64,000 nt of DNA from Nitrospiraceae bacterium (GTDB lineage: Bacteria > Nitrospirota > Thermodesulfovibrionia > UBA6902). Below, piece by piece: positions 1,578 through 31,828 of this stretch; position 1 is the stretch's first letter, and every line of letters starts with the position of its first letter. The notes below the pieces were generated by a model. The model was given only the letters and a program-made list of their open reading frames with translations. It was not told the DNA's origin and did no database searches. The DNA lies in the NCBI GenBank assembly GCA_003599275.1, contig QZJG01000065.1:1410-65409 (forward strand), written 5' to 3'. Position numbers and translations under genes: made by a program.

Positions 1578-4424
1578 TTATTGAGTTGTAAAGCGTTGCA
1601 CCTGACTCTCTGTTATTCCTCCCTTACCATCATCAACAGTGACTTTCCAGTAGTATGTAGTGCCTGTTTCTAATCCTGATACACTCCGGGTAACTTCATC
1701 ACTTGTCACCCCTCCGCCTCCATTACCGCCACCGCCACCCCCTCCGCCGCCACCGCATGAAACAAAGAGCATGGTGAACATCGTAATTATTACGATCAGG
1801 AGGAACATTTTTTTTCTGGTCCTTGCATCAGCGGCAAACACCATTCCGAACAACAACAGGCCGAGACCGGTCCCTGCATAGTGGACAGTTTTATTTCCGG
1901 CAGAAGCCTGTATGGAGGTAACGCCTATAAAATCCGGATCTTCACTATAGTAAAAGTGATAGGTTATCTGGTCCAGATCGGGGTCTGTGCAATTTTTCCA
2001 TCTGAATGACAGAGTTGTTCCCATATTTATCTGACCATTTGCAGGATAAACAAGCTCAGGCGAGGAAGGCGGATTATTATCGGCTGATGAAAGCCCTGTT
2101 CCACTTACTGCAACCATTACCGGATTTTCATCCGAATCATTTGACGGGATGTCAAAGCTGTCACTGAATGTGCCGGTCGCAGTCGGGGTAAAATTAACTG
2201 TAATGGTGCAGTCCTCTGTCGGCAACAGGACTTTTCCTGAGCAGTTGTCATTCAATATCTCAAATGGCGGTGTGAGCTGGTCATTCAGCGCTATGGCTCC
2301 TATAACAAGATTTGCAGTCCCGTAATTGGCTATCTTGACGGCCCTTGCCATGACGAGGCCTTCCGTTAAATTCTCAAAAGGCATTTGAAGGTCATCGGCA
2401 GGTCCCCTGGCATCGGACACCTTAATGTCCGGCGTCGGCAGAGTTCCTGTCCCACTCACACTTACGGTCACCGTGCTTTCATCGGGATCGTCAGAAGGAA
2501 TATCAAAGCTGTCGGCAGACATTATCAATGCTGACGGGGCGAAGGTCACTTTGAAAGTACACGTTGCCGCCGGGACCAGGACTTTGTTTGAGCAGTTGTC
2601 ATTTGATATTTCAAACGGCGTCGCAACGGGATTTGCACCTGCAATCTGACCGATATTAAAATCCGCATTGCCGCTGTTGGCAACCGTCACTGTCTGACTC
2701 GATAAACTGCCGGCTGATATATTACCGAAGGGCATGTTCCTGTCATCAACGGGTGGGATGGTGTCTGTCACTGAAATGTCAGGCTGAAGTATCTGTGAAG
2801 CAGGCAGATCTAATCTTCCATAGCCATAAACATTATCTTTTCCTGTCGCCCCCATATCTACTGCCTGATCAGTCAGGGCGTCCCATAACTGCGAGACAGA
2901 ATAACCGGGCTTATGGGAAAGGATTAAGGCCGCTGCCCCTGCAACATGCGGACTGGATGCGCTTGTGCCGAAAAAAGAACCATACGAATAACTTGATACA
3001 CCATCAGGGCCGCTGATATCCGGTTTTATTCTGCTGTCATTAGACGGGCCTTGCGAACTGAAACTCTCATAGGGACCGGTGCTCCATTTGTCCTTATTTA
3101 TGGCGGCAACGGCCATTGCATTAACTGCGTCTGCCGGGCCTATAAGACTGCTTGAGGCAACTGCGGGATTCAGGTTGTGATTGAAACTGTAAACCTCAAG
3201 CTTATGGTTTCCGGTTGCGGAACTTTTTTTGATTTTCAGATAATAAGTGCCGGAGGCCGGTACAGGATAATAAATATCTTCTATCGGCAGTTGTGTCCCG
3301 GTCTGAGATGTGTTGCTTGATGCCACCGGTGAAATTGAACTGTAACTATTATAAAGGAGCAAGTCATAGTCCTGATCGGTAGCAGGCCATGCATTCCATG
3401 TCAAAAAGGCCTGAATTGTCGATCCCGCACTTGCATAAATGGTTACAGCCTCATTGCTTCCGGATACGTTATGCCATTTGTCTGCATCAGGGTCTGAAAA
3501 GGCAGCTTCGTAGTGTTGCTGTGCTGAATTCCCTGCGGAATTTACCCACAGAATGCCGCTCGAATAGGCATCGTTAACAGTGCAGACCGGGTTGTCGTAA
3601 TAACATTCGCCGCTATAGAAATTTGTATTTACCCATCCTACTGAGTGGTTTATGATTTTAATCCCGTTATTTTTGCAGTAATCTTTTGCATCCTTTAAAT
3701 CTAAATTGTCGTCGATCTTCATAAGATACAATTGCGCCTCCGGGGCCATGTCGTAGACAATCTCGGCAACAGCGGTCCCGTGGTCTTCCGTCTCATTGGA
3801 GAAAGTTGTCGAAGTACATGAGCTCGTACAGTCGATTTTTGCAACACTGCCCGGCAATTCGCCTGCGGATATAGCTGAAGATAATCCTTTAAATCCGACG
3901 TCTATTATCGCGATTTTTACCCCTGCGCCTTTATATCCTGTGGAATGATAAACGGACGCCCCTGTCAGGCCCACTCCCTCACTTGTATATGATAACGGCA
4001 GGGGCTTATCAGGTAATTTTATAAACGATATCCCTGCCACATTATCTGCTATCTGTTTAATCATATTGACCGGGACCTTTGCTTTCATCACCTTATCGCC
4101 GCTCTTTACGATCTCAACTCCATAAGACTGAAGGGCATTCCTGTCAATTGCGTCAACGGTCCCGTCAGGTTTTGAAATCAGAAACACTGTGACTTTGTCC
4201 CGGTATTCAATTTTTATGTCTCTCTCCCGAGCAAAACTTTGAATATTGATTACGTCTGTTTCATATTTGTCCTGCAATTCCGCAAGGACACTTGCTACTT
4301 TTGGATGTACATTCCCGTTCTTGTAAACACCTTGCGCATTTGACGAAGCAGTGAAGACACAAACAATAAATACGGCTATCGTAAAAAATATTGCTGATTG
4401 CCTCACGTACCATTTCCTGTTCAT
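1578..4424 (-). CDS. Secreted subtilisin-like (S8) serine protease, with prodomain, two ~110-aa tandem beta-domain repeats and a C-terminal FN3-like/poly-Gly region
   Basis: N-terminal signal peptide. Catalytic triad motifs are present: DVGF (Asp), HGTAVAEIV (His), GTSASSPHVAGAAALI (Ser). An internal tandem repeat has the pattern ...FDIPSDDPDESTVTVSVSGTG / ...FDIPSNDSDENPVMVAVSGTG. A G10NG4 run sits near the C-terminus. Confidence 0.85.
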   Translation of the reverse strand: MNRKWYVRQSAIFFTIAVFIVCVFTASSNAQGVYKNGNVHPKVASVLAELQDKYETDVINIQSFARERDIKIEYRDKVTVFLISKPDGTVDAIDRNALQSYGVEIVKSGDKVMKAKVPVNMIKQIADNVAGISFIKLPDKPLPLSYTSEGVGLTGASVYHSTGYKGAGVKIAIIDVGFKGLSSAISAGELPGSVAKIDCTSSCTSTTFSNETEDHGTAVAEIVYDMAPEAQLYLMKIDDNLDLKDAKDYCKNNGIKIINHSVGWVNTNFYSGECYYDNPVCTVNDAYSSGILWVNSAGNSAQQHYEAAFSDPDADKWHNVSGSNEAVTIYASAGSTIQAFLTWNAWPATDQDYDLLLYNSYSSISPVASSNTSQTGTQLPIEDIYYPVPASGTYYLKIKKSSATGNHKLEVYSFNHNLNPAVASSSLIGPADAVNAMAVAAINKDKWSTGPYESFSSQGPSNDSRIKPDISGPDGVSSYSYGSFFGTSASSPHVAGAAALILSHKPGYSVSQLWDALTDQAVDMGATGKDNVYGYGRLDLPASQILQPDISVTDTIPPVDDRNMPFGNISAGSLSSQTVTVANSGNADFNIGQIAGANPVATPFEISNDNCSNKVLVPAATCTFKVTFAPSALIMSADSFDIPSDDPDESTVTVSVSGTGTLPTPDIKVSDARGPADDLQMPFENLTEGLVMARAVKIANYGTANLVIGAIALNDQLTPPFEILNDNCSGKVLLPTEDCTITVNFTPTATGTFSDSFDIPSNDSDENPVMVAVSGTGLSSADNNPPSSPELVYPANGQINMGTTLSFRWKNCTDPDLDQITYHFYYSEDPDFIGVTSIQASAGNKTVHYAGTGLGLLLFGMVFAADARTRKKMFLLIVIITMFTMLFVSCGGGGGGGGGGNGGGGVTSDEVTRSVSGLETGTTYYWKVTVDDGKGGITESQVQRFTTQ

Positions 4425-4433
4425 TTTGTCCCC

Positions 4434-4871
4434 TTACCGTACTACCGGTTTGTCAGGCAATTTTATCGACCGTATAATGGGTTCTTTTGATAGAGAGGTC
4501 AGCGCTTCTACAGGGACCGACGCCCTCAATAAATCTTTTGATTTTTTTTCTTCAACGATGCCGTGACTTTTAATTATCTCTTCTCTCTTTGAATCGTCAG
4601 AGGCCGGATCAAATATTATAAAGACCCTGACTTTCCCATTGGACAAGAAGATGTCATGTTGCTTTGCAAAGTTTTCCCGGTCTGCTGCAAGTGTAAGTTC
4701 ATAAAGTACTGAGCTGAGTTTCGCATATTCTCCGGGTTGCTTGTGTTGTGTCACTTTTTCCGGGAGGGCAGATTGTTGCGCAGATGTGCAGGACGCTATT
4801 AAAAGCAGATGGAGAAATAAAAAAGCGCTTTTGATTGTTCCGGATTTATAAACCCTGCTTGCCCTTTTCAT
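4434..4871 (-). CDS. Stand-alone lipoprotein homologous to the protease's own N-terminal prodomain (I9-inhibitor-like)
   Basis: Lipobox LLIASC. It aligns with residues ~40-140 of the downstream protease (SSVLYEL/ASVLAEL, KVRVFIIFDP/KVTVFLISKP, SIKLPDKP/SFIKLPDKP). Its stop lies 7 bp before the protease start. Confidence 0.7.
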   Translation of the reverse strand: MKRASRVYKSGTIKSAFLFLHLLLIASCTSAQQSALPEKVTQHKQPGEYAKLSSVLYELTLAADRENFAKQHDIFLSNGKVRVFIIFDPASDDSKREEIIKSHGIVEEKKSKDLLRASVPVEALTSLSKEPIIRSIKLPDKPVVR

Positions 4872-4990
4872 TGAGACGGCCCCCGGTTAATTTCAAGAAT
4901 CGACTTAAATTTTATATCAGACTCCCATCCCATTGTCAAACAGCCGGGGCGGGTTAAACGCACAATTCTTTATTTTGTATAATATAAACC

Positions 4991-6406
4991 ATGTCAAACA
5001 TCAAACATGATTTAAACGGACTTTCTATTCTCGTAATTGAAGATGATACGGCTTCAGTGAAAAGTATCGAGGGTGAGCTGAGGGATTACGGCGCAAATGT
5101 CTTTACGGCATCGGGAGCTGAAAGGGCGTCGGAGATTTTATCAAAGGAGCATATCAGCGTGATACTCGTCTCCCTCATGCTTGCAGACGAGAAATGCCTG
5201 AATGCCGTAAAGGATTACAAGGCAAGATATCCGGACACCCTGTTTTATTTATTGGCCGAGCATAATTACTGCCTCGTGGAACCGGTTGAAGAATCCATAA
5301 GGCAGATATTGGATGATTACTTCCGGAAGCCCCTTGATATTGAAAGATTTGCAAGTATAGTTGGGGCGAGTTTCGGAAGGCCCCGTTCTTCGATAACGGC
5401 GTTGTCCGTAATCGAGCCTTTAGCCAACAGGACAAAGCCGTATTTTATCTTCCGGTCCTATACCATGCGCCTGGCGCTCTCCAGCCTTCCACAGATCGCA
5501 GCTTCGGAACAGACCGTCCTTGTTTCGGGAGAAACAGGGACAGGGAAGGAACTGGTCGCCCGCGCCATTCATATGCTGAGTCCACGTTCGAACGGTCCGT
5601 TTGTCCCCATCAACTGCGGCGCCATACCCGAGAGCCTCATTGAGAGCGAGCTCTTCGGCCATGAAAAAGGGGCCTTCACAGGGGCGTTCAAGAGCCGGAA
5701 GGGGAAGTTCGAGGCCGCAGACAACGGGACGTTATTTCTCGATGAGATCGGCGACATGCCGCTTGTTCTGCAGATCCGCCTTCTCAGGGTGCTGGAAGAC
5801 AGGGAGGTCTATCGTATCGGCAGTGATAAGCGCATACCCGTCAGCGTCAGGGTCATAACCGCTACTCATATGGACCTTGAAGGCGCGGTGAGGAACGGCC
5901 TTTTCAGGGAAGACCTCTACTACCGTTTGAATGTACTCCGCATCCACCTGCCGCCGCTCAGAGAGCGTGTTGACGACATTCCGATACTCGCTTTGCATTT
6001 CCTCGAAAGGGCGTTTGATGAGATGCGGCGCGCTCAGCCCTATCCTTCCCTTTCACCTGAGACGGTCTACCTCCTTCAGCGCCATCCCTGGAATGGCAAT
6101 GTCAGGGAACTCAGAAACGTCATGACCCGTGTGGCCACATTATTGCCTCCCGACACAAAACATGTATTCCCGATACATGTCTCGCCTCATCTTGAAGGTA
6201 TAAACAGGGCAAAGAAAAGTCCGGACATCCCGGTAAGTTCGCAGGGGATATTCATCCCGAAAGGAACATCCCTCGAAAAGGCTGAAGACATGCTGATACA
6301 GGAGACATTAAAACAGACCGGCGGCAATCGCACAAAGGCCGCAAAACTTCTCGGCATCAGCATCAGGACCCTCAGAAGAAAGCTCCCCGGCATCCCCTCC
6401 CCATAG
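4991..6406 (+). CDS. Sigma-54-dependent transcriptional activator (NtrC family) with a non-phosphorylatable receiver-like domain
   Basis: AAA+ sigma-54 interaction motifs GETGTGKELVARAIH, GAFTGA and ESELFGHEKGAFTGA. C-terminal Fis-type HTH AAKLLGISIRTLRRKL. In the N-terminal REC-like domain the phospho-Asp position reads VILVSLMLAD (Ser) and the Thr position reads LLAEH (Ala). Confidence 0.85.
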   Translation: MSNIKHDLNGLSILVIEDDTASVKSIEGELRDYGANVFTASGAERASEILSKEHISVILVSLMLADEKCLNAVKDYKARYPDTLFYLLAEHNYCLVEPVEESIRQILDDYFRKPLDIERFASIVGASFGRPRSSITALSVIEPLANRTKPYFIFRSYTMRLALSSLPQIAASEQTVLVSGETGTGKELVARAIHMLSPRSNGPFVPINCGAIPESLIESELFGHEKGAFTGAFKSRKGKFEAADNGTLFLDEIGDMPLVLQIRLLRVLEDREVYRIGSDKRIPVSVRVITATHMDLEGAVRNGLFREDLYYRLNVLRIHLPPLRERVDDIPILALHFLERAFDEMRRAQPYPSLSPETVYLLQRHPWNGNVRELRNVMTRVATLLPPDTKHVFPIHVSPHLEGINRAKKSPDIPVSSQGIFIPKGTSLEKAEDMLIQETLKQTGGNRTKAAKLLGISIRTLRRKLPGIPSP

Positions 6407-6513
6407 GTCATAATGACTTGTGGGACATGTTGGCCTGACGTAATCGGGACATATTGGCCTATACTCAATAAAATGTTTAATCCAACCGGTTGAAGTTTCA
6501 GGAAATATAATCC

Positions 6514-6529
6514 TGGCATCCGTTTTGCT
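6514..6529 (+). promoter_or_regulatory. Sigma-54 (-24/-12) promoter upstream of the hsp20 operon
   Basis: TGGCATCCGTTTTGCT matches TGGCAC-N5-TTGC, with GG at 6515-6516 and GC at 6527-6528. It lies 50 bp upstream of hsp20 (RBS GGAGG at 6565) and directly downstream of the sigma-54 activator gene. Confidence 0.65.
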
Positions 6530-6577
6530 TTTTAAATTATATGAAATTTAATTTAAACCTGAGAAGGAGGTGGGACC

Positions 6578-7009
6578 ATGTTAATCAGAGAACTTGAGAG
6601 ACTGGAAAATTTTTTAGAGCCGTGGAGGGACTTTGAGCGTCTGAACCGGGAGTTGTTTGGGACGTTTTCTCCGGTCAGGACCGAATTCCCTCCAGTGAAT
6701 GTCCGGAAGAATGAAGAGAAGGCCGTTGTAACGGCGGAGCTGCCAGGAGTTGATCCTGAAAGCGTCGATATCAGTGTTGCAGAGAGGAAACTTACGTTGC
6801 GCTTTGAGCGCAAACCCGAGGAGCTTAAGGAAGGAGAATCCTTCACAAGGAAGGAGCGCTGGCACGGTGAGTTCAGCAGGACAATAGAACTGCCCTTCAA
6901 TATCCAGGCAGAAAAAGTTGAGGCGAGGTTTTCAAGAGGTATTCTCGATATCGAGCTGCCTCGCGCAGAGGCCGAGAAACCGAGAAAGATAACCGTGAAA
7001 CCGGAATAA
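6578..7009 (+). CDS. Hsp20/alpha-crystallin family small heat-shock protein
   Basis: Alpha-crystallin domain with AELPGVDPESVDISV ... GILDIELPR; good RBS. Confidence 0.85.
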   Translation: MLIRELERLENFLEPWRDFERLNRELFGTFSPVRTEFPPVNVRKNEEKAVVTAELPGVDPESVDISVAERKLTLRFERKPEELKEGESFTRKERWHGEFSRTIELPFNIQAEKVEARFSRGILDIELPRAEAEKPRKITVKPE

Positions 7010-7021
7010 CCCAATAAGGAG

Positions 7022-7420
7022 GTGTTTGAAATGGCGGAGACAATAAAAGACATAAAGACTTCTGAAGGCGGGCATAGAAAGGAGAGAAGGATCTATGTCC
7101 CCGCAGTGGATGTGATAGAGACGGCAAACAACATTCTTGTGATCGCTGATATGCCGGGTGTGGATGAGAAATCCGTAGACATTACAGTGGAAAAGGATCT
7201 CCTTACAATTTACGGGATGATAGATACGCCGGTTTCTCATGACCTTGGACCGGCGGTTGCCGAATACGGCATCGGAGATTACAGGAGGGCGTTCAGTCTT
7301 TCCGATGAAATCGACAGTGAAAAAATAAAGGCCTCTTTCAAAGACGGCGTGTTGAAGCTCGTTCTGCCTAAATCGGACAAAGTCAGGACAAGAAAGATAC
7401 AGGTGATCAGCGAGGCTTGA
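7022..7420 (+). CDS. Hsp20/alpha-crystallin family small heat-shock protein (second copy)
   Basis: ADMPGVDEKSVDITV ... GVLKLVLPK; RBS AAGGAGG. Confidence 0.85.
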   Translation: MFEMAETIKDIKTSEGGHRKERRIYVPAVDVIETANNILVIADMPGVDEKSVDITVEKDLLTIYGMIDTPVSHDLGPAVAEYGIGDYRRAFSLSDEIDSEKIKASFKDGVLKLVLPKSDKVRTRKIQVISEA

Positions 7421-7446
7421 CCAGTTAACATCTGAACAATAAAGGG

Positions 7447-7487
7447 CCGGTGCGTGAGCAGACAATATTCATGCACCGGCTCTTTTT
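7447..7487 (+). terminator. Rho-independent terminator after the hsp20 operon
   Basis: Stem CCGGTGCGTGA/TCATGCACCGG followed by CTCTTTTTGTTT. Confidence 0.6.
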
Positions 7488-7516
7488 GTTTGTTCTTATG
7501 ACCCGCGCAACCGACT

Positions 7517-7930
7517 TCAGGTTGCTGCAGTTATCATATCGTCCCCGTTCATTTTCATGCCTTTTATCTTCCATCCCTCAAAAAATGTGTCAAAACGGTG
7601 GGGCCTTGAGACATCAAATTTCGGGGGCATCCTGAAGGTCTTCCTTGAAATCGCCGGGCTGTTGTCCGCCTTTCCAAGCAGCACAGTAACTTCTCCTTCC
7701 GCCGCGTTGATACTCACGATCATCTGGAATACGGGCTTATTAATGATTGTACTCATGATGGGGTTGATCTTTGCCATTGCCTGGGGCTCCAGGACTGTTA
7801 TAAATGTCCCGCTGCCGATGTTGTCTTCATCCGGGATAAGGATTTCTGAAAACTCTATGCCGGGCAGTGGTTTGTCTTCACGGCTTCTTATCTCTGCCAA
7901 TTTTACCTCCTGATATCGAAAGGTTTGCAC
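7517..7930 (-). CDS. Hypothetical protein (137 aa)
   Basis: Intact ORF with no recognisable motif. It sits between the hsp20 terminator and lpxB. Confidence 0.35.
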   Translation of the reverse strand: MQTFRYQEVKLAEIRSREDKPLPGIEFSEILIPDEDNIGSGTFITVLEPQAMAKINPIMSTIINKPVFQMIVSINAAEGEVTVLLGKADNSPAISRKTFRMPPKFDVSRPHRFDTFFEGWKIKGMKMNGDDMITAAT

Positions 7931-8086
7931 GTGTTATTCATTAAGGTCACACAGATTTTATCTGTACGGGCAGATTTTTTCAATTCATACTACGGTGTTA
8001 TGAATAATGGGGGACCAGATGATTATCACATCATGCGCATTGAATTACCCTTCTGTTTAATGATATTTTATCGGGTGTCGAAGAAG

Positions 8087-9187
8087 ATGATGATAAGCGC
8101 GGGCGAGGCCTCAGGAGAGTTATACGGCGCGCTGCTGAGCAGGGAGGTCAAAAGGCTCTGGCCCGATACGGAGATCTTCGGCATCGGCGGCCCACGGATG
8201 AAAAATGAAGGCGTCACGCTGATCGCCCCCATTTCGCAGGTAGTCGGAATTGTTGAGGCCGTCAAACATACAGGAGAAGTCAGGGACACCTTCAGAAAGG
8301 CGAAAGAGGCGCTGGTCACTAAAAGACCCGATGTGCTCGTCCTTATTGATTATCCCGATTTCAATATCGCACTTGCCAAAAGGGCAAAGGCCGCAGGTAT
8401 TCCGATTCTTTATTACGTAAGTCCTCAAGTGTGGGCATGGAGGCGCGGACGGGTGAAAACTATTGCTTTGTTGGCGGACAGGATCGCCGTGCTTTTCCCC
8501 TTTGAATGTGAATATTATAAGGAGACCGGGCTGCCCTGCGAGTTTGTAGGACATCCTGTTGCCGAGACAATCAATATTACGCAGACAAAAGAAGAGCTGA
8601 AAAAGGACCTCGGCCTTGCCCCGGACAGGGATGTGGTCACACTGCTTCCGGGGAGCAGGCCTGCAGAGATCAAAAGGCATCAGGCAATCATTAAAGGGAC
8701 CGCTGAAAAATTCCATCACGAATTTCCCGGCGTACAGGTAGTCGTCCCTCTCACTGCCGAATCGAATCTCCCGGAAGGGCTTCCGGATTATGTCAAAGTC
8801 ATCCGCGCCCGCACTACCGAGGCTGTCGCCTGTTCAGAGGCAGCGGCAGTGGCGTCAGGCACTGTAACGTTTGAAACCGCGCTCACCGGCACACCCATGG
8901 TGGTTTTTTACAGGGTCTCCCCGGTAACATATTTTCTTGCAAAACTGCTGGTAAAGGTTGAATTCATTTCTCTCGTCAACATCCTCTCCGGCAAAAGGGT
9001 CGTCCTGGAGCTGCTGCAGGAAAAAGCAAGTCCCGACAGAATTTTTGCCGAGATGAAAAGAATCCTGCATGACATGCCGTACCGGAATGACATGATATCG
9101 GACCTGGGCAAGATTAAAGCCCTTATGTCCGGGAAGAAACCGTCTCAGCGTATCGCCCGGATGGCCGGTGAGATGGCTGGATGGTAG
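8087..9187 (+). CDS. lpxB: Lipid-A-disaccharide synthase LpxB
   Basis: N-terminus MMISAGEASGELYGALL...FGIGGPRM and the GT19 fold pattern. The start was chosen at ATG 8087; the ORF is open from 7925. Confidence 0.8.
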   Translation: MMISAGEASGELYGALLSREVKRLWPDTEIFGIGGPRMKNEGVTLIAPISQVVGIVEAVKHTGEVRDTFRKAKEALVTKRPDVLVLIDYPDFNIALAKRAKAAGIPILYYVSPQVWAWRRGRVKTIALLADRIAVLFPFECEYYKETGLPCEFVGHPVAETINITQTKEELKKDLGLAPDRDVVTLLPGSRPAEIKRHQAIIKGTAEKFHHEFPGVQVVVPLTAESNLPEGLPDYVKVIRARTTEAVACSEAAAVASGTVTFETALTGTPMVVFYRVSPVTYFLAKLLVKVEFISLVNILSGKRVVLELLQEKASPDRIFAEMKRILHDMPYRNDMISDLGKIKALMSGKKPSQRIARMAGEMAGW

Positions 9188-9190
9188 AGA

Positions 9191-10441
9191 ATGCTGCTAT
9201 ATAATCTTCTTTCAGCCATAGGGGTTGTTTTTTACCTCCCGAAACTTATCTTTAAAAAAGGCCCTGAAAACAGGCGCTCCTTCATCAGTGAACGCCTCGG
9301 CATGTCTTCTTATGCAAGGACAGACATATGGGTGCATGCCGTTTCCGTCGGGGAAGTGATTGCGTGCGTGCCTTTTTTGAAGATGCTGAAGAAGGAATTT
9401 CCCGGCGAAAGAATTCTACTCTCCACAACAACTTATACCGGACAAAAGGTCGCGCGGGAGAAATTCCCCGAGGCCGACAGGACAATGTACTCGCCTCTGG
9501 ATACGGCATTCTGCGTCAGACGCGCAGTCAACTCATTGAAACCCAAAATATTCATCACGATAGAGACCGAGCTCTGGCCGGCCCTCTTTCATAGACTGAA
9601 ACGGTCAGGTTCTTCAGTAATCGTTCTGAACGGCAGGATATCGGACAAATCATTCAAAGGCTACAGGCGGCTTGGTTTTCTTATGAAGAGGGTCCTGTCG
9701 CACATTGATTTTTTTTATATGCAGACCGGGGCGGACGCTGAAAGGATAATGACCATCGGCGCACCTGGACATAAAGTGGGCGTGATGGGGAATTTTAAAT
9801 TCGATATCACGTTTGACACATCGAAACACTTAGACTGGCTGGATGAAGTCAAGGGCAGGACACTGCTTGCCGCAAGCACTCACAAAGGTGAAGAAGAAAT
9901 AATCATTGACGCTTATGCGTCTGTAAAACGGGACCATCCTGATTTAAAACTCATCATCGCCCCGAGACACCCTGAGAGGTTTGACGAAGTTGGGGAAATT
10001 ATAAGCAGGAGAAACCTGAAATTCATCAGGCGAACGGAAATGAATGAGGGACAAGGGGCAAGAGACAAGGAGCAAGACATCATCCTTCTTGATACCATAG
10101 GCGAATTGCCGCGAGTTTTTTCCGGAGTCGCCATGGCCTTTATCGGCGGAAGCCTTGTGCCGAAAGGGGGGCACAATATCCTTGAGCCTGCTTACTGGTC
10201 AAGGCCGGTAATCTTCGGGCCGCACATGAACAACTTTCCTTTTGCGAAGGAATTCATAGACCGGGGCGCGGCCCTTCAGGTCAATAACGCAGACGATGTC
10301 GCGAAAACGGTCCAATATCTTTTGGATAATGAGGCAAAAGCGGTCAACATGGGACAAAATGCAAAAAAAATTTTAGACAACAACATCGGCGCGGTAAACA
10401 GGGCAATCGAGCTCGTCAGAGGTTACCTTGGGACTGCTTAG
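9191..10441 (+). CDS. waaA: 3-deoxy-D-manno-octulosonic acid (Kdo) transferase WaaA/KdtA
   Basis: HAVSVGEVIACVPFLKMLKKEFP...LSTTTYTG, typical of KdtA, within the lpxB-kdtA-lpxK synteny. Confidence 0.8.
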   Translation: MLLYNLLSAIGVVFYLPKLIFKKGPENRRSFISERLGMSSYARTDIWVHAVSVGEVIACVPFLKMLKKEFPGERILLSTTTYTGQKVAREKFPEADRTMYSPLDTAFCVRRAVNSLKPKIFITIETELWPALFHRLKRSGSSVIVLNGRISDKSFKGYRRLGFLMKRVLSHIDFFYMQTGADAERIMTIGAPGHKVGVMGNFKFDITFDTSKHLDWLDEVKGRTLLAASTHKGEEEIIIDAYASVKRDHPDLKLIIAPRHPERFDEVGEIISRRNLKFIRRTEMNEGQGARDKEQDIILLDTIGELPRVFSGVAMAFIGGSLVPKGGHNILEPAYWSRPVIFGPHMNNFPFAKEFIDRGAALQVNNADDVAKTVQYLLDNEAKAVNMGQNAKKILDNNIGAVNRAIELVRGYLGTA

Positions 10442-11444
10442 CGGACTATACGGACTCGGACTAAAATGCAAGAGGTCACTTGTTAAGCCGTGCAGATTGC
10501 CTGCGAAGGTCATCAGCGCAGGCAATCTGACCCTCGGCGGAACGGGCAAGACGCCTGCCGCGATTGCAATTGCAGAGGAGGCAAAAAAGCGGGGCCTCAA
10601 ACCTTGCATTTTAACACGAGGATATAAAGGCAAAGTGAAAGGGCCGTGCTTTGTCGAGGGCAAAGGGCAAAGGACAAAGGGCAAAGACATTGTTTGCTTC
10701 GGTGTTGACGCCGGGGACGAGCCCGCGTTAATGGCTGAGAGATTAAAAGATGTGCCAATCGTGAAATGCGCGGACAGATACAAAGGCGGCATGTTTGCTC
10801 TTAACTCTCAACTCTTAACTCTCAACTCTCAACTCGTTTTCATCCTCGATGACGGCTTTCAGCACTGGGCGCTTCACAGGGATGTTGACATAGTCCTCGT
10901 TGACGCGGGCAATCCTTTCGGGAATGAAAAACTCTTTCCCGAAGGCAGTCTGAGAGAACCTCTTGAATCTCTAAGGCGGGCGGGTATCATTGTCATCACA
11001 AAAGCTGATATGGTCAGCGGGGAGTCTCTCTCAAAGCTTGTTCAAAAAATTAAACGATATAATCAGGAAGCGCCGGTATACACAGCGTCACATAAAGCCG
11101 CCGCCATTGTTAACGTGTCAGGGGAGCCTATGGGCCTCGAAATCCTGAAGAGTAAAAACGTCCATGCGTTTGCCGGCATTGCCAATCCTGAATATTTCAA
11201 AGACACATTAATTTCAAACGGCGCAAGTATCGCAGAGTTCAAATCCTTCAGGGACCATTATATTTACAAACAGCGTGACATTGATAAAATAAAATCCGCT
11301 GCGGCGGGGCTGGACATCATTACAACCGAGAAAGATTTGGTGAAGCTCAAAGGTTTGCGATTGCCGGACAACATATTCGCCCTCAGGGTCGATTTTTCCA
11401 TTGAGGAAGGTTTTTATAATTTAATTTTTGGAGGGGTAAGGTGA
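10428..11444 (+). CDS. lpxK: Tetraacyldisaccharide 4'-kinase LpxK (contains an in-frame heptanucleotide tandem repeat)
   Basis: Walker-A-like GNLTLGGTGKTP and the ILDDGFQH motif. Overlaps kdtA by 14 nt. Confidence 0.8.
   Translation: MGLLSGLYGLGLKCKRSLVKPCRLPAKVISAGNLTLGGTGKTPAAIAIAEEAKKRGLKPCILTRGYKGKVKGPCFVEGKGQRTKGKDIVCFGVDAGDEPALMAERLKDVPIVKCADRYKGGMFALNSQLLTLNSQLVFILDDGFQHWALHRDVDIVLVDAGNPFGNEKLFPEGSLREPLESLRRAGIIVITKADMVSGESLSKLVQKIKRYNQEAPVYTASHKAAAIVNVSGEPMGLEILKSKNVHAFAGIANPEYFKDTLISNGASIAEFKSFRDHYIYKQRDIDKIKSAAAGLDIITTEKDLVKLKGLRLPDNIFALRVDFSIEEGFYNLIFGGVR
10801..10835 (+). repeat. Five tandem copies of heptamer YYAACTC inside lpxK
   Basis: ttaactc tcaactc ttaactc tcaactc tcaactc, encoding LNSQLLTLNSQL. 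Three related copies lie at 49068-49088. Confidence 0.8.
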
Positions 11445-11839
11445 TAAAAAACATCAACATCAGGACAAAATCACGGAACGAGTTCGTTGACATTACCTCT
11501 GAATTGCAAACGCTCATAGATGAAGCCGGGATAAAAGGCGGTATATGCCTTGTCTACGTCCCTCACACGACGGCAGGAGTGACAATAAACGAAGGGGCGG
11601 ACCCTTCTGTTGTAAAAGATATTCAGAATACCCTCAGTAAGCTGGTCCCCCGGGAAGGGCATTATCTGCATTCGGAAGGGAATTCAGACGCTCACGTCAA
11701 AGCGACCCTTGCCGGCTCTTCACAGAGCATCATCATCGACGGCGGCAAGCTCCTCCTCGGCACCTGGCAGTCCGTGTTCTTCTGCGAATTCGACGGCCCG
11801 CGTCACAGAAGGGTGACGGTGAAGATCGTGAGTGATTAA
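11441..11839 (+). CDS. YjbQ/UPF0047 family protein (secondary thiamine-phosphate synthase-like)
   Basis: VYVPHTTAGVTINE...DAHVKATLAGSS matches the YjbQ family. Confidence 0.7.
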   Translation: MIKNINIRTKSRNEFVDITSELQTLIDEAGIKGGICLVYVPHTTAGVTINEGADPSVVKDIQNTLSKLVPREGHYLHSEGNSDAHVKATLAGSSQSIIIDGGKLLLGTWQSVFFCEFDGPRHRRVTVKIVSD

Positions 11840-12074: not shown

Positions 12075-13208
12075 ATGCCGGGAAAAATCCCAGGTTATGG
12101 TGGGAAAAGGCCTCAGTTGAAAATAGAGGTTGACCGACTTCATCTCGACGCAGAAAACCCTCGTCTTCCTGAATCAATACAAGGACAGAAGGAAGCCACA
12201 ATTCTTCAGGAACTATTTGAAGAGTTCAATCTGGAAGAAATTTCAGACTCGATTTCTCAAAATGGCTACTTTGATGAAGAGCCGCTTGTCGCAATACCTC
12301 TTGGCCTTACCGCGAAACTTCTCCGCAAGTCTGAAAGCGAAAATTATGACGCATTCATTCATAAAAAAACGACTCAGTTTACTGTCGTCGAGGGGAATAG
12401 ACGATTAGCAACAATCAAAATACTCCTCGATAAGGGCACTCAGAACTCTTTAGGTATTCGCTCTTGGCCTGAAATCAGCAAAGAGGTTCGCGAAGATATT
12501 TCTAAATTGCCGGTTATTGTCTATCCAGAACGCAAAGAGGTAATTCCATATCTCGGTGTGCGACATATAACTGGTATAAAGAAGTGGGATGCTTATGCAA
12601 AAGCACGATATATAATTCATATGATAGAAAGTGGGCTATCAATAGAAAACATAGAACTGCGAATTGGTGATAAACAGGGATCGGGCAGGAAAAATGTTAT
12701 CTGCTATAAAATGATCAAGCAAGCCCACGAGGAATTTGATTACGATGTCAGTTTAGCGACGCAATACTTTTCGTATCTGATGTTATCAATTGGACAACTC
12801 CCTATAAGAAATTACCTGGGGATGGGAAAGCTTAAGGAAATATCATTAGATGAGCCTATACCAAATACTAAGATAGAGGAATTGAAAAACCTCTTGTCTT
12901 GGCTTTTTGGTGAAGATAAAAATAGGAAACCTGTAATAGATGATTCAAGAGAGATTACGCAATATTTAACGCATGTTGTTAAAAGCCCTGAAGCAGTGGA
13001 GTACCTGAATAAGACCCGACGATTGCAGGATGCGTATGAATTAACCGATGGTGAGGAGACAATGCTGAAGAAAACCCTATCATCTGCCGGGTTCAAGCTT
13101 GAAAAAGCTTTAGGAATTATACATAGACATAAAACTCTTGAAATAAAAGCGGAAGTCGAGAAATGCTTTGAGACGGCTAACCGGCTTCGTAAAACAATTA
13201 ATGAGTAG
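12075..13208 (+). CDS. ParB/Srx-fold (ParB-like nuclease domain) protein
   Basis: LHLDAENPR and VVEGNRRLATIKIL match the ParB N-terminal domain motifs (DPxNPR / GxRR). AT-rich context. Confidence 0.6.
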   Translation: MPGKIPGYGGKRPQLKIEVDRLHLDAENPRLPESIQGQKEATILQELFEEFNLEEISDSISQNGYFDEEPLVAIPLGLTAKLLRKSESENYDAFIHKKTTQFTVVEGNRRLATIKILLDKGTQNSLGIRSWPEISKEVREDISKLPVIVYPERKEVIPYLGVRHITGIKKWDAYAKARYIIHMIESGLSIENIELRIGDKQGSGRKNVICYKMIKQAHEEFDYDVSLATQYFSYLMLSIGQLPIRNYLGMGKLKEISLDEPIPNTKIEELKNLLSWLFGEDKNRKPVIDDSREITQYLTHVVKSPEAVEYLNKTRRLQDAYELTDGEETMLKKTLSSAGFKLEKALGIIHRHKTLEIKAEVEKCFETANRLRKTINE

Positions 13209-13210
13209 CT

Positions 13211-14068
13211 ATGATAGAGATTCCTGACGCACAATCTCACCGCGCTGTTGCCGATTGGCTTGAAATTCACCTATCAATTTTTGCTGCATCGATATCTAAG
13301 GCTGAGCTTTCTTCATATTTAGAAGGGCTGTCTGGAGACGAAAGCACCGAGGCATTCTTAAGTAGCGTTTGGAACGAATTGCTATCAAGGCAGAGTCAAT
13401 ATATGCGACCGCCTTTTATCGTATCTGAGAGGCGCATAATCAAGAATACTGCTGTAACGTATGGTGTTGAATATCTTACATGTTTGATTCTTTCTCTATA
13501 TGGTGTGAATGATCATGATATTTCCGGAAGGAGAATGCGCTCAGCTAAATTATTTGAAAGACTCTCCGGATTTGCTCTCCAAGAATATTTAGGTGGGAGA
13601 TTTTTTTTATTTGGCTGGCCTGCGTTAGATGGCACAGAGCCCGCAATTCAAGCTCGTATTCAGCAAGTTTCTACTGAATTGAACGAACGATTTGTCGAAG
13701 CACCTGCAGCGACCTATAAAGATAGGGGCGTAGATATAATTGCATGGAAGCCTTTCGCTGAAGGCAGAAGCTGCCAATGCGTCATTTTAGCGCAATGCGC
13801 TGCTGGTAAGGATTGGCGAAATAAGACGACTACTCTGCCAATGGATGCCTGGACTAAATACATACATTGGGCATCTAATCCAATCAAAGCATTTTTTGTT
13901 CCTTGTGTGATTCCTGATAATTTGTGGCTTGAAGCTTCGTGGGAAGCCGGAATCTTATTTGATCGAATCAGGATAATGAATTTATTAAATGGTGGAATTC
14001 CTGACGAACAACTCAATCAAGATCTTTTGACATGGACAACCGAGCAGCTTAGTGAGCATGAGGTATGA
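13211..14068 (+). CDS. Hypothetical protein, candidate type II restriction endonuclease partner of Dcm
   Basis: No conserved family was recognised. Its stop overlaps the Dcm start (ATGA), which implies translational coupling. There is a possible PD-(D/E)xK-like segment, KDRGVDIIAWK. Confidence 0.35.
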   Translation: MIEIPDAQSHRAVADWLEIHLSIFAASISKAELSSYLEGLSGDESTEAFLSSVWNELLSRQSQYMRPPFIVSERRIIKNTAVTYGVEYLTCLILSLYGVNDHDISGRRMRSAKLFERLSGFALQEYLGGRFFLFGWPALDGTEPAIQARIQQVSTELNERFVEAPAATYKDRGVDIIAWKPFAEGRSCQCVILAQCAAGKDWRNKTTTLPMDAWTKYIHWASNPIKAFFVPCVIPDNLWLEASWEAGILFDRIRIMNLLNGGIPDEQLNQDLLTWTTEQLSEHEV

Positions 14069-15402
14069 AATTTATTGACTTATTTGCAGGACTCGGTGGA
14101 TTTCACATTGCACTCAGGCAACTTGGGCATAGTTGTGTCTTCGCGAGTGAGTTAGACCCGCTGCTGCGTGATTTATACAACGAGAATTTCAGCATATTGC
14201 CTGCTGGTGATATTCGTACCATAAAGGTATCCGACATCCCATCACATGACATTTTGTGTGCAGGCTTCCCTTGTCAACCATACTCAAAAGCCGGAGAGCA
14301 GCAAGGCACATCATGCCCACGCTGGGGGGATCTGTTTGAGCATCACGTTATCAGAATAGTAAAAGCTCATGAGCCAAAATATGTTTTACTGGAGAATGTG
14401 CCTAACCTAGTCAGACACAATAATGGACGCACATGGGATCAGATGCAGCAAAGGCTTGCTAAGTGCGGTTATGAGGTTGCGTCCGAAATTCTATCACCCC
14501 ATCATTTTGGTATCCCACAGATTCGTGAGCGCATGTTTGTTGTTGGCAGTCGCACGGGGCTTGATAAATTTAAATGGCCCCAAAAAACAAGCGTTCAGTG
14601 CTCAATAGGCTCTATTCTTGATCTGAAGCCTCCGGATGCAAAGCCATTGTCAGCGCAGGTAACAAAATGTATGGAGGTATGGCAAGACTTTTTAGATCGC
14701 TCACCGCATGATGAGGGGCTGCCGTCTTTTCCAATCTGGACAATGGAATTTGGGGCAGACTATCCTTTCGAAGACACAACGCCATACGCCATCGGCACAA
14801 AGAGACTGCGACAATATAAAGGATCTCATGGGTTTAAACTTTCAAAGGCTGGACCAAAGCAGAGATTTGATTGCCTACCCTCTTATGCAAGGACAAAAGA
14901 GAAGCTATTCCCTGACTGGAAGATTCAGTTTATTCGACAGAACCGTGACTATTACAACAAGAATAAACGGTGGATAAAGCCGTGGCTTCCCAAAATCCTT
15001 GAATTTCCTCCGAGCTTGCAGAAGTTTGAATGGAATTGCAAAGGCGAAGAGAGGGACATATGGCAATTTATAATACAGTTTCGCGCTTCAGGAGTCAGAG
15101 TTAAACGGCCGACCACTGCTCCTTCTTTAGTAGCAATGACATCAACCCAAGTGCCAATCATTGCATGGGAGAAACGTTATATGACGCCTCGGGAATGCAG
15201 CCGCCTTCAAAACATGGAGTCTTTGCGCGACCTTCCGGGGTCACAAACAAAAGCATATAAAGCTCTTGGCAATGCCGTTAATGCTGAAGTTGTAAGGAAG
15301 ATTGTTGAATCCCTTTGTGTATCAGGACACCGATACACAGACATGATTGCTGTATCTCGACTGCAACAGATATCGCCTGTAGTTTTGATAGATAGCTTAT
15401 AA
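14065..15402 (+). CDS. dcm: DNA (cytosine-5)-methyltransferase (Dcm family)
   Basis: Motif I FAGLGGF, motif IV GFPCQPYS, motif VI ENVPNL, motif X ALGNAVN. Confidence 0.9.
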   Translation: MKFIDLFAGLGGFHIALRQLGHSCVFASELDPLLRDLYNENFSILPAGDIRTIKVSDIPSHDILCAGFPCQPYSKAGEQQGTSCPRWGDLFEHHVIRIVKAHEPKYVLLENVPNLVRHNNGRTWDQMQQRLAKCGYEVASEILSPHHFGIPQIRERMFVVGSRTGLDKFKWPQKTSVQCSIGSILDLKPPDAKPLSAQVTKCMEVWQDFLDRSPHDEGLPSFPIWTMEFGADYPFEDTTPYAIGTKRLRQYKGSHGFKLSKAGPKQRFDCLPSYARTKEKLFPDWKIQFIRQNRDYYNKNKRWIKPWLPKILEFPPSLQKFEWNCKGEERDIWQFIIQFRASGVRVKRPTTAPSLVAMTSTQVPIIAWEKRYMTPRECSRLQNMESLRDLPGSQTKAYKALGNAVNAEVVRKIVESLCVSGHRYTDMIAVSRLQQISPVVLIDSL

Positions 15403-15420
15403 CTTATAAAGGGGGCTGAC

Positions 15421-16980
15421 ATGACCGGTGGGAAACCAGTACATCGAGTTAACATTAGACCGGGTGTCAGTGTTCTTTCGGTTCTCCGACATCTAAATTA
15501 CAAGCCATGGTTCGCATTAGCAGAATTTATTGATAATGCCTTGCAAAGTTATTTTGAATCCAAAGAAAATCTTTTGAAAATTGAAGGCAACGACTTTAAG
15601 CTGCGTATAAATATTGACATTGATTCTACTGATGCCGGAAGGATTTCTGTTCGTGACAATGCGGGAGGGATAGATAAAAAAGACTTCCCACGCGCTTTTA
15701 GGCCTGCAGAGCTACCTCCTAACCGTAGCGGTTTAGGAGAATTCGGCATGGGGATGAAAAGCGCTGCTTGTTGGTTTTCTCCAATGTGGTCAGTGAGGAC
15801 GTCTGCCCTCGGTGAAAGCGACGAGAAAACTGTTGCCTTTGATATCTCAAGAATAGTGCAAGATGAGATTGAAGAGCTTGACGTGGATGCTCGACCTGCT
15901 GACAAAACAGCACATTTCACAGAAATTGTCTTATCCAGCCTTTATCATGTGCCTGCTGGCCGTACCCTTGGGAAAATCAAAGATCATCTTAGGGATATAT
16001 ATCGTGTTTTTACGCAGCAAGGGCTAATGGTTTTGAAATTTAACGGTGAGGAATTGATACACCAAGAGCCCGATATATTGATGGCGCCTTCATATCGCAA
16101 TGAGAACGGGCCAGCCATTCTCTGGCGAAAAGGCGTTGAGTTTAATTTTGGCAATGGATTGCGTGCCCACGGTTTTGCAGCAATCAGGAAAACGGCCAGC
16201 ACTTCTTTTGCAGGATTTTCCTTATTTCGTAGAAATCGTCTAATACAGGGAAGCGGTGATGAAGGTTATAGGCCTGAGACTATTTTTGGAAAACCCAACA
16301 GCTTTGTTTATCAGCGTTTATTTGGCGAGCTACATCTTGAAGGGTTTGAGGTAAGCCATACAAAAGATGGCTTACAGTGGGATGAGAATGAGGAGCCATT
16401 TTTAGAGCTTTTAAAGGAAGAGTTGTCGAAGCCCGAAATTCCCCTTTTGCAGCAAGCACGAGAATACCGCGTGCAGCCCAGACAACTCGATCTTAGGCGG
16501 GGAGCGGAAGGAGCTTTGTCGCATACTTCTGATGCTATAAAGAACTATGTGCCTCCTGTGTTTTTAGCTCTAAGCACAGAGCCCCCAGTACAAACGCCTT
16601 CTGATGATCTTTCACAGTCAAGCATAGCATCTCGAAGAATAATTGACGTTGAGCTACAGGGCAAGCCATGGCGAATCGTAATAGAGTTGTCAGATGATCC
16701 TGCCATTGGAGATTGGCTTGAGATAAACGATCAGATCGCGAAAGAGCGAGCACAGACAGGCAATACTTCGCGCCGAACTATAGGCCTTCGTCTTTCCCTG
16801 AGGCATCCTTTTATGGAGCGATTTAGTGGCGTTGACCCAGACCAGATCGAGCCACTTTTGCGCGTTGCAGCAGCACTGGGACTTGCAGAAGTGGCAGCCC
16901 GTGAAAGCGGCGTTAGATATGCTGGGACAGTGAGGCGTAATGTGAACGAGCTATTGCGAAATGCCTTATGGCGAACTTAG
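15421..16980 (+). CDS. GHKL-superfamily ATPase (HATPase_c_3 / MORC-MutL-like), Dcm-associated
   Basis: Bergerat-fold motifs EFIDNALQ (N-box), VRDNAGGI (G1), GEFGMGMKSAA (G2). Confidence 0.75.
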   Translation: MTGGKPVHRVNIRPGVSVLSVLRHLNYKPWFALAEFIDNALQSYFESKENLLKIEGNDFKLRINIDIDSTDAGRISVRDNAGGIDKKDFPRAFRPAELPPNRSGLGEFGMGMKSAACWFSPMWSVRTSALGESDEKTVAFDISRIVQDEIEELDVDARPADKTAHFTEIVLSSLYHVPAGRTLGKIKDHLRDIYRVFTQQGLMVLKFNGEELIHQEPDILMAPSYRNENGPAILWRKGVEFNFGNGLRAHGFAAIRKTASTSFAGFSLFRRNRLIQGSGDEGYRPETIFGKPNSFVYQRLFGELHLEGFEVSHTKDGLQWDENEEPFLELLKEELSKPEIPLLQQAREYRVQPRQLDLRRGAEGALSHTSDAIKNYVPPVFLALSTEPPVQTPSDDLSQSSIASRRIIDVELQGKPWRIVIELSDDPAIGDWLEINDQIAKERAQTGNTSRRTIGLRLSLRHPFMERFSGVDPDQIEPLLRVAAALGLAEVAARESGVRYAGTVRRNVNELLRNALWRT

Positions 16981-23561: not shown

Positions 23562-23749
23562 CAGCGCCAGGATCAGTATGATTATTCGAAGTCTGATTTT
23601 CTGCCCTCCGGATTAAGTATCTGTCCGCCCTGCAAAATCAGAATTATGACTTGTTACCGATTATGATACCTATAGTATGCCCGCATTTCAATCAGCCCGG
23701 AGGGATCATACTTTTACACGGCTACGCAGAGGCGGTTCGCGAACCGCCT

Positions 23750-25054: not shown

Positions 25055-25163
25055 TGTTTACCGGACCGCATGATTATTAAATTTACGGGACGCCTCAATT
25101 ATACTATTTGATATAATCTCAGTAAAGCAGGACAGCACTGCGGTTTTGTTAACCGGATGAATT

Positions 25164-25694: not shown

Positions 25695-25697
25695 CGT

Positions 25698-26517: not shown

Positions 26518-26710
26518 GTCTGAAGAGCTCAAAAGGAGTTTGACATCAGTGGGAAAGACTATCTGTGTAATCTGTGCATGGAGGGAGACCTGCCAGAAGA
26601 AATTTTCGGTAAGCGGTAATGATACAAGGTGTGTGGATTTTGTAAAAGACCTCTCCATTAAAGAGGACCCTGAATAGCAGGCAACCATCTCTCATCACAG
26701 GATATTTGCA

Positions 26711-28504: not shown

Positions 28505-28507
28505 CGC

Positions 28508-29860: not shown

Positions 29861-29948
29861 GCAAGTCTTTCCTATGTGAAGTATTCAAAATTGTTGCACA
29901 GTTTGGATTAAATAGCAATTGCCCGTGATATGGCGGGATGTCCCCGGA

Positions 29949-31715: not shown

Positions 31716-31828
31716 ACGGATTGCCTGCTATTAATATCGGTCAATCCGGGCGTAAGCTTGAGCCCTGGTTATTTATGAAATCGTGCCTGCTCTGCAGAAA
31801 AATCTATGAATAATAATGCGGGCAAAGG

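Follow-up and report, generated by a model that had tools for sequence, protein, structure and literature searches.

A conserved pseudo-receiver enhancer-binding protein linked to a putative sigma-54-dependent hsp20 operon in Nitrospirota

Genes at the locus

The DNA analysed here is a stretch of 64,000 nucleotides from a Nitrospiraceae bacterium (assembly GCA_003599275.1, contig QZJG01000065.1, positions 1,410 to 65,409 of the forward strand), hereafter called the window; coordinates are counted from its first letter. Its forward strand carries the gene of a sigma-54 enhancer-binding protein (EBP) at positions 4991–6406 (471 amino acids), which begins with a pseudo-receiver domain, and directly downstream two genes for small heat-shock proteins (sHsps), hspA and hspB. 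The properties of the activator, the DNA between it and hspA, and the regulatory circuit that they may form are described below.

Pfam models recognise all parts expected of such an activator: Response_reg (30.8 bits, only just above the cut-off of 30.2), Sigma54_activat (PF00158, 234.9 bits), AAA_lid_14 and HTH_8 (56.1 bits). The AAA+ sigma-54 interaction domain and its lid are encoded at 5450–6199 (+) and contain the Walker A motif GETGTGKE and the Walker B motif DEIG, both of which are invariant in the EBP family. The GAFTGA loop lies at 5669–5686 (+), corresponding to amino acids 227–232. Within and around these motifs G227, F229, T230, A232, K186, D251 and E252 are unchanged in an alignment of 80 family members. 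The Fis-type helix-turn-helix DNA-binding domain, to which the HTH_8 match corresponds, occupies amino acids 427–465 (6269–6385, +). The description of the gene product as a sigma-54 activator in the first-pass annotation, which had been made from the letters only, is thereby borne out.

The nearest NCBIfam models are NtrC, AtoC and ZraR. Since the scores are far under every cut-off (368 against 558.6 for ntrC), the protein belongs to no curated or named NCBIfam equivalog. A look-up of the exact sequence returned no entry, yet 100% identity was found to a protein recorded at NCBI as 'MAG: sigma-54-dependent Fis family transcriptional regulator [Nitrospiraceae bacterium]', MAG being a metagenome-assembled genome. 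The closest solved structures are those of NtrC1, ZraR, FleQ and NtrX; the best sequence match is 4L4U (Aquifex NtrC1, E = 6e-81), and 1NY5 and 3DZD are among the top matches. A model computed by AlphaFold2 from 80 homologues has NtrX, NtrC1 and NtrC4 as its top Foldseek neighbours, together with LuxO, FleQ and VpsR. By every sequence feature that marks this family, the protein appears to be a complete group-I-like bacterial EBP (bEBP), for which ATP-dependent open-complex formation is predicted.

The receiver-like domain is joined to the AAA+ domain by a conserved linker (amino acids 129–153, 5375–5449, +) with the signature GRP...SLxV(I/V)(E/D)PL...K(V/T)KPYF(I/L)FRS. In the family alignment G129, L138, P143, F152, R155 and S156 are invariant. 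The model assigns amino acids 129–150 a predicted local distance difference test score (pLDDT) of 29–39, which corresponds to predicted disorder; the segment is rich in Pro and does not resemble a coiled coil.

The first of the two target genes, hspA (6578–7009, +), encodes a protein of 143 amino acids (Pfam HSP20, 69.2 bits) and is preceded by the Shine-Dalgarno (SD) sequence GAAGGAGGTG at 6564–6573 (+). For hspB (+) the ATG at 7031 is a likelier start than the listed GTG at 7022, and the SD sequence AAGGAGG at 7016–7022 stands before it. Read from this ATG, the gene extends over 7031–7420 and encodes 129 amino acids (HSP20, 58.5 bits). Both proteins match the alpha-crystallin family PF00011, and their C-termini (...KITVKPE and ...KIQVISEA) contain the characteristic I/V-x-I/V motif. 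The operon is followed by an intrinsic terminator at 7441–7490 (+), a long GC-rich hairpin with an A-rich run before it and TTTTTGTT behind it. Its folding energy is -33.6 kcal/mol (z = -7.58), and none of 200 shuffled sequences folded equally well. Hence the two Hsp20 genes ended by a clean terminator, as they had been described at first, hold up in every part.

Two side observations concern the same region. Because the hairpin is flanked by an A-rich run and a T-run, it may act bidirectionally and also serve the convergent open reading frame (ORF) at 7517–7930 (-), whose 137-amino-acid product has no Pfam or NCBIfam match. In many orthologous operons (L002, L004, L009, L018, L023, L026 and L036) there is a third, longer Hsp20 gene of about 165 amino acids, which the window does not have.

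A receiver domain without the phospho-acceptor

The pseudo-receiver (N-domain) comprises amino acids 11–128 (5021–5374, +). When it is aligned by phmmer to Aquifex NtrC1 (1NY5/4L4U), with confidence over the whole receiver, 'VILVSLMLAD' is matched with 'VVLLDLLLPD'. In this alignment, and likewise in a MAFFT alignment that includes CheY, Ser61 (codon 5171–5173) is found at the position of the phosphorylated Asp. Ala89 (5255–5257) sits opposite the Thr of 'VITGHG' in NtrC1. Other residues of the domain are retained, namely Tyr110, Lys113 (5327–5329) with Pro114, and the acidic cluster Glu17-Asp18-Asp19. The AlphaFold2 model shows amino acids 12–128 as a (beta/alpha)5 receiver fold, five strands alternating with helices, with a pLDDT of about 90. 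The region between beta4 and alpha4 (amino acids 90–100) and the linker are the least confident parts of an otherwise confident N-domain model.

For a wider view, at least 120 EBP homologues with 58–78% identity were collected, nearly all of them from metagenomes of Nitrospirota/Thermodesulfovibrionia. The phospho-acceptor column contains Ser in 55 sequences, Ala in 54, Pro in 5, Val in 3, Gly in 2 and Tyr in 1, and Asp in none of the 120. Lys113 is retained in 113 of them, whereas the Thr column is divided between Thr (69) and Ala (43). With Asp missing throughout, the N-domain should not be phosphorylatable on Asp, and it lacks the residue that defines a phosphorylatable response regulator; the first-pass annotation had already pointed to Ser in place of Asp, Ala in place of Thr and a conserved Lys, and had drawn the same conclusion. 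Mean column identity of the N-domain across the family is nevertheless 60%. Since the domain is so well conserved despite the missing Asp, we regard it, as far as sequence can tell, as a maintained and functional pseudo-receiver rather than a decaying one.

No histidine kinase gene flanks the EBP gene in the window or in four related metagenome loci (L001–L004), and the neighbouring genes vary from locus to locus. Within the window, a hybrid histidine kinase 15 kb from the EBP gene is the single kinase. When 1.8 billion representative proteins were searched exhaustively with the N-domain, only 22 matches came out under 1e-10. Matches from outside the clade are generic receivers with 23–30% identity, and any identity there amounts to only 23–35%. 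A sister group with a working receiver was sought in this way and rejected: the few distant relatives with a (K/R)PYF-FRS motif have Asp, Asn, Glu or Gly at the position in question, and the rest of their pocket is degenerate. At the one locus examined for such a distant relative (P0125, L049/L050) there is no hsp20 gene.

A sigma-54 promoter and three palindromes upstream of hspA

Between the EBP gene and hspA, a perfect match to TGGCAY-N5-TTGCW is found at 6514–6529 (+), TGGCATCCGTTTTGCT (TGGCAT-CCGTT-TTGCT), with TGGCA at 6514–6518, a spacing of six nucleotides and TTGC at 6525–6528. It lies 64 nt upstream of the hspA ATG and is the only such match in the window on either strand; a -24/-12 promoter had been proposed here at first reading. 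Shuffled sequences contain 0.15 matches on average, and 14 of 100 shuffles contain at least one. By itself the match would be only suggestive; its position and its conservation, described in the following section, are what make it significant. The predicted transcription start of the hsp20 operon is near 6540.

Three copies of a putative enhancer element with the consensus GGnCA-N3-TGnCC precede this promoter. Site 1, GGTCATAATGACT, at 6406–6418, has one mismatch to the consensus, and its first base is also the final one of the stop codon of the EBP gene; it is located 108 nt before TGGCA and is the equivalent of the distal site in other loci. Site 2, GGACATGTTGGCC, at 6423–6435, and site 3, GGACATATTGGCC, at 6447–6459, are palindromes of the consensus form, the latter starting 67 nt before TGGCA. 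The EBP presumably binds to these palindromes. Between enhancer and promoter, at 6483–6495 (-), the sequence CAACCGGTTGAAG differs at two positions from the reverse complement of WATCAANNNNTTR and thus resembles a site for integration host factor (IHF), which might bind there.

Conservation of the link in related loci

Species genomes of GTDB were scanned with the family peptide [VT]KPYF[IL]FRS, which yielded 44 confirmed loci in addition to the metagenome loci L001–L004. All inspected loci with this peptide show the same EBP architecture. An hsp20 gene is situated downstream in 23 of the 44, in 20 of them directly after the EBP gene and on the same strand; in two it follows 1.3–2.7 kb further on (L043 and L047), and in one it is adjacent on the opposite strand (L048). 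One further locus (L029) contains the remnant of an hsp20 gene, 11 have enough sequence and no hsp20 gene, and the remainder are truncated. In all four metagenome loci hsp20 is directly downstream as well. Three EBP homologues with 62–74% identity are followed directly by two or three HSP20 genes amid unrelated flanks. Overall, the order of EBP gene and hsp20 recurs among EBPs that are 57–78% identical, in loci whose flanking genes have nothing in common.

The regulatory DNA was compared in 24 related loci (172 kb) with a promoter call, mostly from Thermodesulfovibrionia MAGs. In all 24, TGGCAY-N5-TTGCW and palindromes are present upstream of hsp20, the promoter being 60–130 nt upstream of hspA. 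GG, CA and TTGC of the -24/-12 element are invariant in 26 of 26 aligned promoters. Two or three copies of GGnCA-N3-TGnCC stand upstream of the promoter in each related locus, and the strict palindromes are highly concentrated there: 52 of 59 matches fall within the 81-nt zone that lies 55–135 nt upstream of the promoter, against an expectation of about 0.08 for this zone. They start at fixed offsets before TGGCA, either about 120, 102 and 77 nt or about 108, 91 and 66 nt. The distance from the proximal site to TGGCA accordingly falls into two classes, 65–67 and 75–79 nt. Since these differ by one helical turn, the same face of the helix is preserved. Most of the aligned loci also have an inverted IHF-like motif, YAA-N4-TTGAWW, some 30 nt ahead of TGGCA.

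The module stays with hsp20 even where the latter is 1.3–2.7 kb away or inverted (L043, L047 and L048), and neither palindromes nor a sigma-54 promoter were found beside EBP genes that have no hsp20. The regulatory link between the EBP, the enhancer, sigma-54 and hsp20 is thus well supported by comparative sequence data, and the position of the EBP gene indeed fits an activator of a sigma-54-dependent hsp20 operon, as had been suggested from the window by itself. In L029 (6542–6720), a Thermodesulfovibrionia MAG, the enhancer and sigma-54 promoter are intact and are followed only by a C-terminal hsp20 remnant (...AVVKDGVLRLTLPKAERAK); apparently this is a decayed operon.

Other controls on the operon and the start of the EBP gene

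Several other ways to control the hsp20 operon were considered and rejected. An RNA thermometer in the hspA leader is not indicated, the fold of the 5' untranslated region having a z-score of 0.44, and no Rfam match at E <= 1 was obtained in 4400–8100. No CIRCE element, the mark of HrcA control, was detected in the window with up to three mismatches allowed. The sole intergenic match to a sigma-70 promoter is weak (9/12) and overlaps enhancer site 3. TTGAAG (6491–6496) and TATAAT (6507–6512) cannot serve as a -35/-10 pair, for they are only 10 nt apart, which is too close. A terminator-like hairpin at 6498–6516 overlaps the -24 element, is weak (six pairs) and not obviously conserved, and was treated as a chance occurrence. 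The proposal in the first-pass annotation that heat-shock control operates through a phosphorylation-independent EBP rather than through sigma-32 or HrcA is therefore tenable for this operon, which has no CIRCE element in the window and no good intergenic sigma-70 promoter, but not as a statement beyond it.

The EBP gene itself had been suspected of being leaderless or nearly so. A TATAAT box, a candidate -10 element, is separated from the ATG at 4991 by 7 nt that contain no SD sequence. The box is situated at 4978–4983 (+), one position upstream of where it had been placed, and the promoter scan skipped it for want of a good -35 element. Among related loci, L001 resembles the window (TAAGAT, 7 nt), the leader in L002 has 18 nt, and in several orthologues the leader is longer or a GGAGG-like sequence is present. 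Most EBP orthologues have a weak SD sequence or none, as opposed to the strong SD sequences of the hsp20 genes. A leaderless start as a trait of the family was rejected because the arrangement is not conserved among the orthologues. For the window, and perhaps for L001, a leaderless EBP mRNA is plausible from the sequence.

Proposed circuit and alternative explanations

We propose that the locus is a dedicated sigma-54 circuit for sHsps, in which the N-domain acts independently of phosphorylation and its control is relieved by proteotoxic stress. We estimate the probability of this reading at roughly 70%. EBP dimers would bind the three tandem GGnCA-N3-TGnCC palindromes, 55–110 nt upstream of the -24/-12 promoter, by means of the Fis-type helix-turn-helix, and three dimers would make up the active ring with its six AAA+ subunits. 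Bending of the DNA at the A/T-rich IHF-like site would carry the ring to the closed complex of the sigma-54 holoenzyme, and ATP hydrolysis together with the GAFTGA loops would open the promoter. The resulting hspA-hspB transcript would run from about 6540 to the terminator at 7441–7490. The N-domain would keep the ATPase off until proteotoxic stress occurs; a phosphorylation-independent mode of action is assumed because the Asp is lost and no partner kinase accompanies the gene. Sequence and comparison show the domain composition with its missing Asp, the promoter with its enhancer sites, and the inheritance of these elements together with hsp20; we infer the binding, the hexamer assembly, the role of IHF, the induction by stress and the kind of signal.

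The likeliest route for the input would be that a chaperone-type partner, either the sHsps themselves or DnaK/GroEL, is titrated in a feedback loop, and a temperature-dependent change within the N-domain the next option. Titration is favoured because of the analogies to PspA-PspF, sigma-32-DnaK and HrcA-GroEL, and because a set-point that senses load suits habitats from cold to hot. A more specific version, in which pseudo-receiver and linker form the docking site of a chaperone (the own sHsps or DnaK) that is titrated off by unfolded proteins, so that in Thermodesulfovibrionia at least the sHsp branch of the proteotoxic stress response would run via sigma-54, is speculative and in this exact form unlikely. 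A direct interaction between sHsps and the EBP is a pure hypothesis drawn from analogy.

Several points weigh against the proposed circuit. Neither an RpoN box nor an rpoN gene was found in the window or in the roughly 350 kb of sequence from about 50 related loci; that the source genome has rpoN is assumed, given that the EBP has GAFTGA and that the -24/-12 element is conserved. Some transcription may also read through from the EBP gene into hspA, since no terminator separates the two. Induction of the operon by heat or stress is suggested by the identity of the target genes only, and no feature in the sequence identifies the input signal. Going by the model, the N-domain might serve activation or assembly instead, and negative control in the manner of NtrC1/DctD should not be assumed, because the linker is predicted to be disordered and not a coiled coil. 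Finally, the 11 loci with enough downstream sequence that have the EBP gene have neither hsp20 nor an enhancer nearby, and the target of the EBP could differ there.

Among the alternatives, the pseudo-receiver might itself be a thermometer: heat would loosen an inhibitory N-domain dimer or the contact between N-domain and AAA+ domain, and the hexamer would form without any partner. This corresponds to the suggestion in the first-pass annotation that the regulator might sense temperature directly. Such an intrinsic sensor would be consistent with hsp20 being the only conserved partner gene beside the EBP gene, with the low-confidence segment 90–100 and the linker, which are compatible with a labile switch, and with the repression of the ATPase by NtrC1-type receivers in their off state (1NY5 and 3DZD). 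The family, however, comes from cold groundwater, deep mines and samples of hot-spring type, so that the set-point would have to be retuned in each lineage, and yet the domain is about 60% conserved. Moreover, the linker is not the coiled coil of NtrC1/DctD. We consider a pseudo-receiver thermometer possible, though on balance doubtful.

Alternatively, the EBP could be constitutively active, with the N-domain as a mere module for assembly or stability and with control exerted through the amount of EBP, for instance by way of an unusual mRNA that is leaderless or has no SD sequence, or through the availability of sigma-54. In favour of this are the close TATAAT box without an SD sequence in the window, the weak or missing SD sequences of most orthologues, and the free alternation of Ser and Ala at position 61. 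On the other hand, the strong conservation of N-domain and linker suggests a specific regulatory interaction, EBPs without such control, like PspF, are normally restrained by a separate protein, and the leader arrangement is not conserved. Constitutive activity hence appears rather improbable.

A third possibility is that the N-domain binds a small ligand or second messenger, for instance cyclic di-GMP (c-di-GMP) in the style of FleQ and VpsR, and that the operon answers to a physiology other than damage. FleQ and VpsR are indeed structural neighbours of the EBP, a Pfam VpsR-domain match was obtained below threshold (16.8 bits, cut-off 23.7), and GGDEF, PAS and PilZ genes are found in the window and beside L002. 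These GGDEF neighbours differ between loci, however. FleQ contacts c-di-GMP in its AAA+ domain through the Arg-Asn after Walker A, an LFRS motif and an ExxxR motif. The first of these, KEVVARN in FleQ, reads KELVARA in the EBP and lacks the key Asn; for this reason control of the FleQ type is not supported. In NtrC1 and ZraR, the counterpart of the 'FRS' of KPYFIFRS is the ordinary G-x-S with which the AAA+ domain starts; with respect to FleQ it lies N-terminal of the phmmer alignment, which begins at query residue 24, and cannot be placed against LFRS. A ligand-binding N-domain is therefore a distinctly unlikely explanation.

That the adjacency is a coincidence, with the EBP acting elsewhere and another activator driving the hsp20 promoter, is highly improbable: 11 loci do have the EBP gene without hsp20 nearby, and binding of the EBP to the palindromes is deduced from sequence, but the gene order recurs at 57–78% EBP identity amid unrelated flanks, the EBP genes adjoin no other enhancer cluster or sigma-54 promoter, and many loci have the stop codon of the EBP gene within reach of enhancer site 1, the two overlapping.

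Neighbouring genes in the window

On the other side of the EBP gene, the segment 1578–4871 (-) contains the gene of a 948-amino-acid S8 subtilase, which has Ig-like repeats and an extended run of Gly. An ORF of 145 amino acids at 4434–4871, directly upstream of it, resembles by eye the N-terminal 100 or so residues of the protease and has no Pfam match; it may be a pro-domain or an inhibitor paralogue.

Downstream of the hsp20 operon, 7925–11839 (+) contains lpxB, a Kdo transferase gene, lpxK and a UPF0047 gene. The listed lpxB ORF has an N-terminal extension of about 55 amino acids from a TTG start, which is probably not real. At 12075–20247 (+) there is a run of co-oriented genes resembling a restriction/defence island. 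This starts with two ORFs without Pfam matches and continues with a C5 cytosine DNA methylase (14065–15402), an HATPase_c_3 protein (15421–16980), a Z1-domain protein (16961–19237) and a DUF4420 protein of the PD-(D/E)XK type (19237–20247). Signalling genes unlinked to the EBP occupy 20958–33220: a hybrid Cache-PAS histidine kinase with a receiver (20958–23561), two PAS-GGDEF proteins, one of them with PilZ, and a T2SSE ATPase of the MshE type.

Comparison with known systems

Bacterial heat-shock genes are classically under the control of sigma-32, HrcA/CIRCE, HspR, CtsR or RNA thermometers. To our knowledge, sigma-54 has so far played only a marginal role at heat-shock genes, namely ibpB of E. 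coli and lonD of Myxococcus, and we know of no dedicated EBP assigned to ibpB. In full-text literature searches no paper on this EBP family or on sigma-54-controlled hsp20 in Nitrospirota was found. Judged from the comparative data, the proteins described here form a genuine and coherent bEBP subfamily that has not been described before and whose operator and target are defined. Their machinery is conventional.

The module of pseudo-receiver EBP, palindromes, IHF-like site, -24/-12 promoter and hsp20 operon extends across the clade and could be rebuilt in E. coli or in vitro. The EBP would offer a simple system for signal transmission by a receiver without a phosphorylation site, and it would be suited for asking whether an AAA+ transcription factor can be held back by sHsps or other chaperones in the role of anti-activators. 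Together, the KPYF(I/L)FRS signature and the GGnCA-N3-TGnCC operator should permit regulon prediction in uncultured Nitrospirota. If the input proves mundane, one more well-documented bEBP subfamily is still gained.

With respect to the target, the nearest precedents are a sigma-54 promoter at E. coli ibpB (Kuczynska-Wisnik 2001, as cited in PMC2831329) and HsfA of Myxococcus xanthus, described as an NtrC-type activator of the heat-shock gene lonD (Ueki and Inouye, as cited in PMC3892784). According to the same citation, HsfA has a cognate kinase (HsfB/HsfA-lonD) and is phosphorylated. Neither ibpB nor HsfA/HsfB-lonD has a triple palindrome or a pseudo-receiver. Sigma-54 promoters have also been predicted at IbpA, GroEL and DnaK in Planctomycetota and Bacteroidota (PMC12316311).

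In its architecture of receiver, AAA+ domain and helix-turn-helix, in the GAFTGA loop and in the Walker motifs, the EBP resembles the group-I bEBPs NtrC1 and NtrC4 of Aquifex aeolicus. It differs from them by Ser61 (Ser or Ala in the family) instead of the phospho-Asp, by Ala89 instead of Thr, by the lack of a cognate kinase, and by a linker that is Pro-rich and predicted to be disordered instead of a coiled coil. FleQ/FlrA and VpsR likewise possess an N-domain related to receivers that does not work by phosphorylation of Asp. These proteins, however, target flagellar or biofilm genes and are controlled by FleN and c-di-GMP, and the EBP does not have their ligand residues.

The arrangement of the DNA sites is most reminiscent of NorR-norVW, with three tandem enhancers upstream of a sigma-54 promoter and a regulon dedicated to stress detoxification with an adjacent regulator gene. 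In E. coli NorR the three enhancer sites are needed for ATPase activity and oligomerisation (PMC2831303). The parallel is drawn because the three dimer sites of our module match the six subunits of the EBP ring. In contrast to the EBP, NorR senses nitric oxide via the iron centre of a GAF domain; its site sequence differs, and norR is divergent from norVW.

PspF-PspA is a sigma-54 stress operon whose activator is not phosphorylated, and the likeness to the EBP, drawn by analogy, lies in the proposed feedback logic only, by which a protein made from the operon would hold the activator back until stress draws that protein off. PspF has no N-terminal domain and responds to membrane damage, whereas the EBP carries a conserved pseudo-receiver and is proposed to respond to damage of cytoplasmic proteins. 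If chaperone docking were true, the hsp20 operon would be governed by a cytoplasmic loop like that of PspA and PspF, and the EBP would be the first dedicated sigma-54 heat-shock activator to sense damage without phosphorylation.

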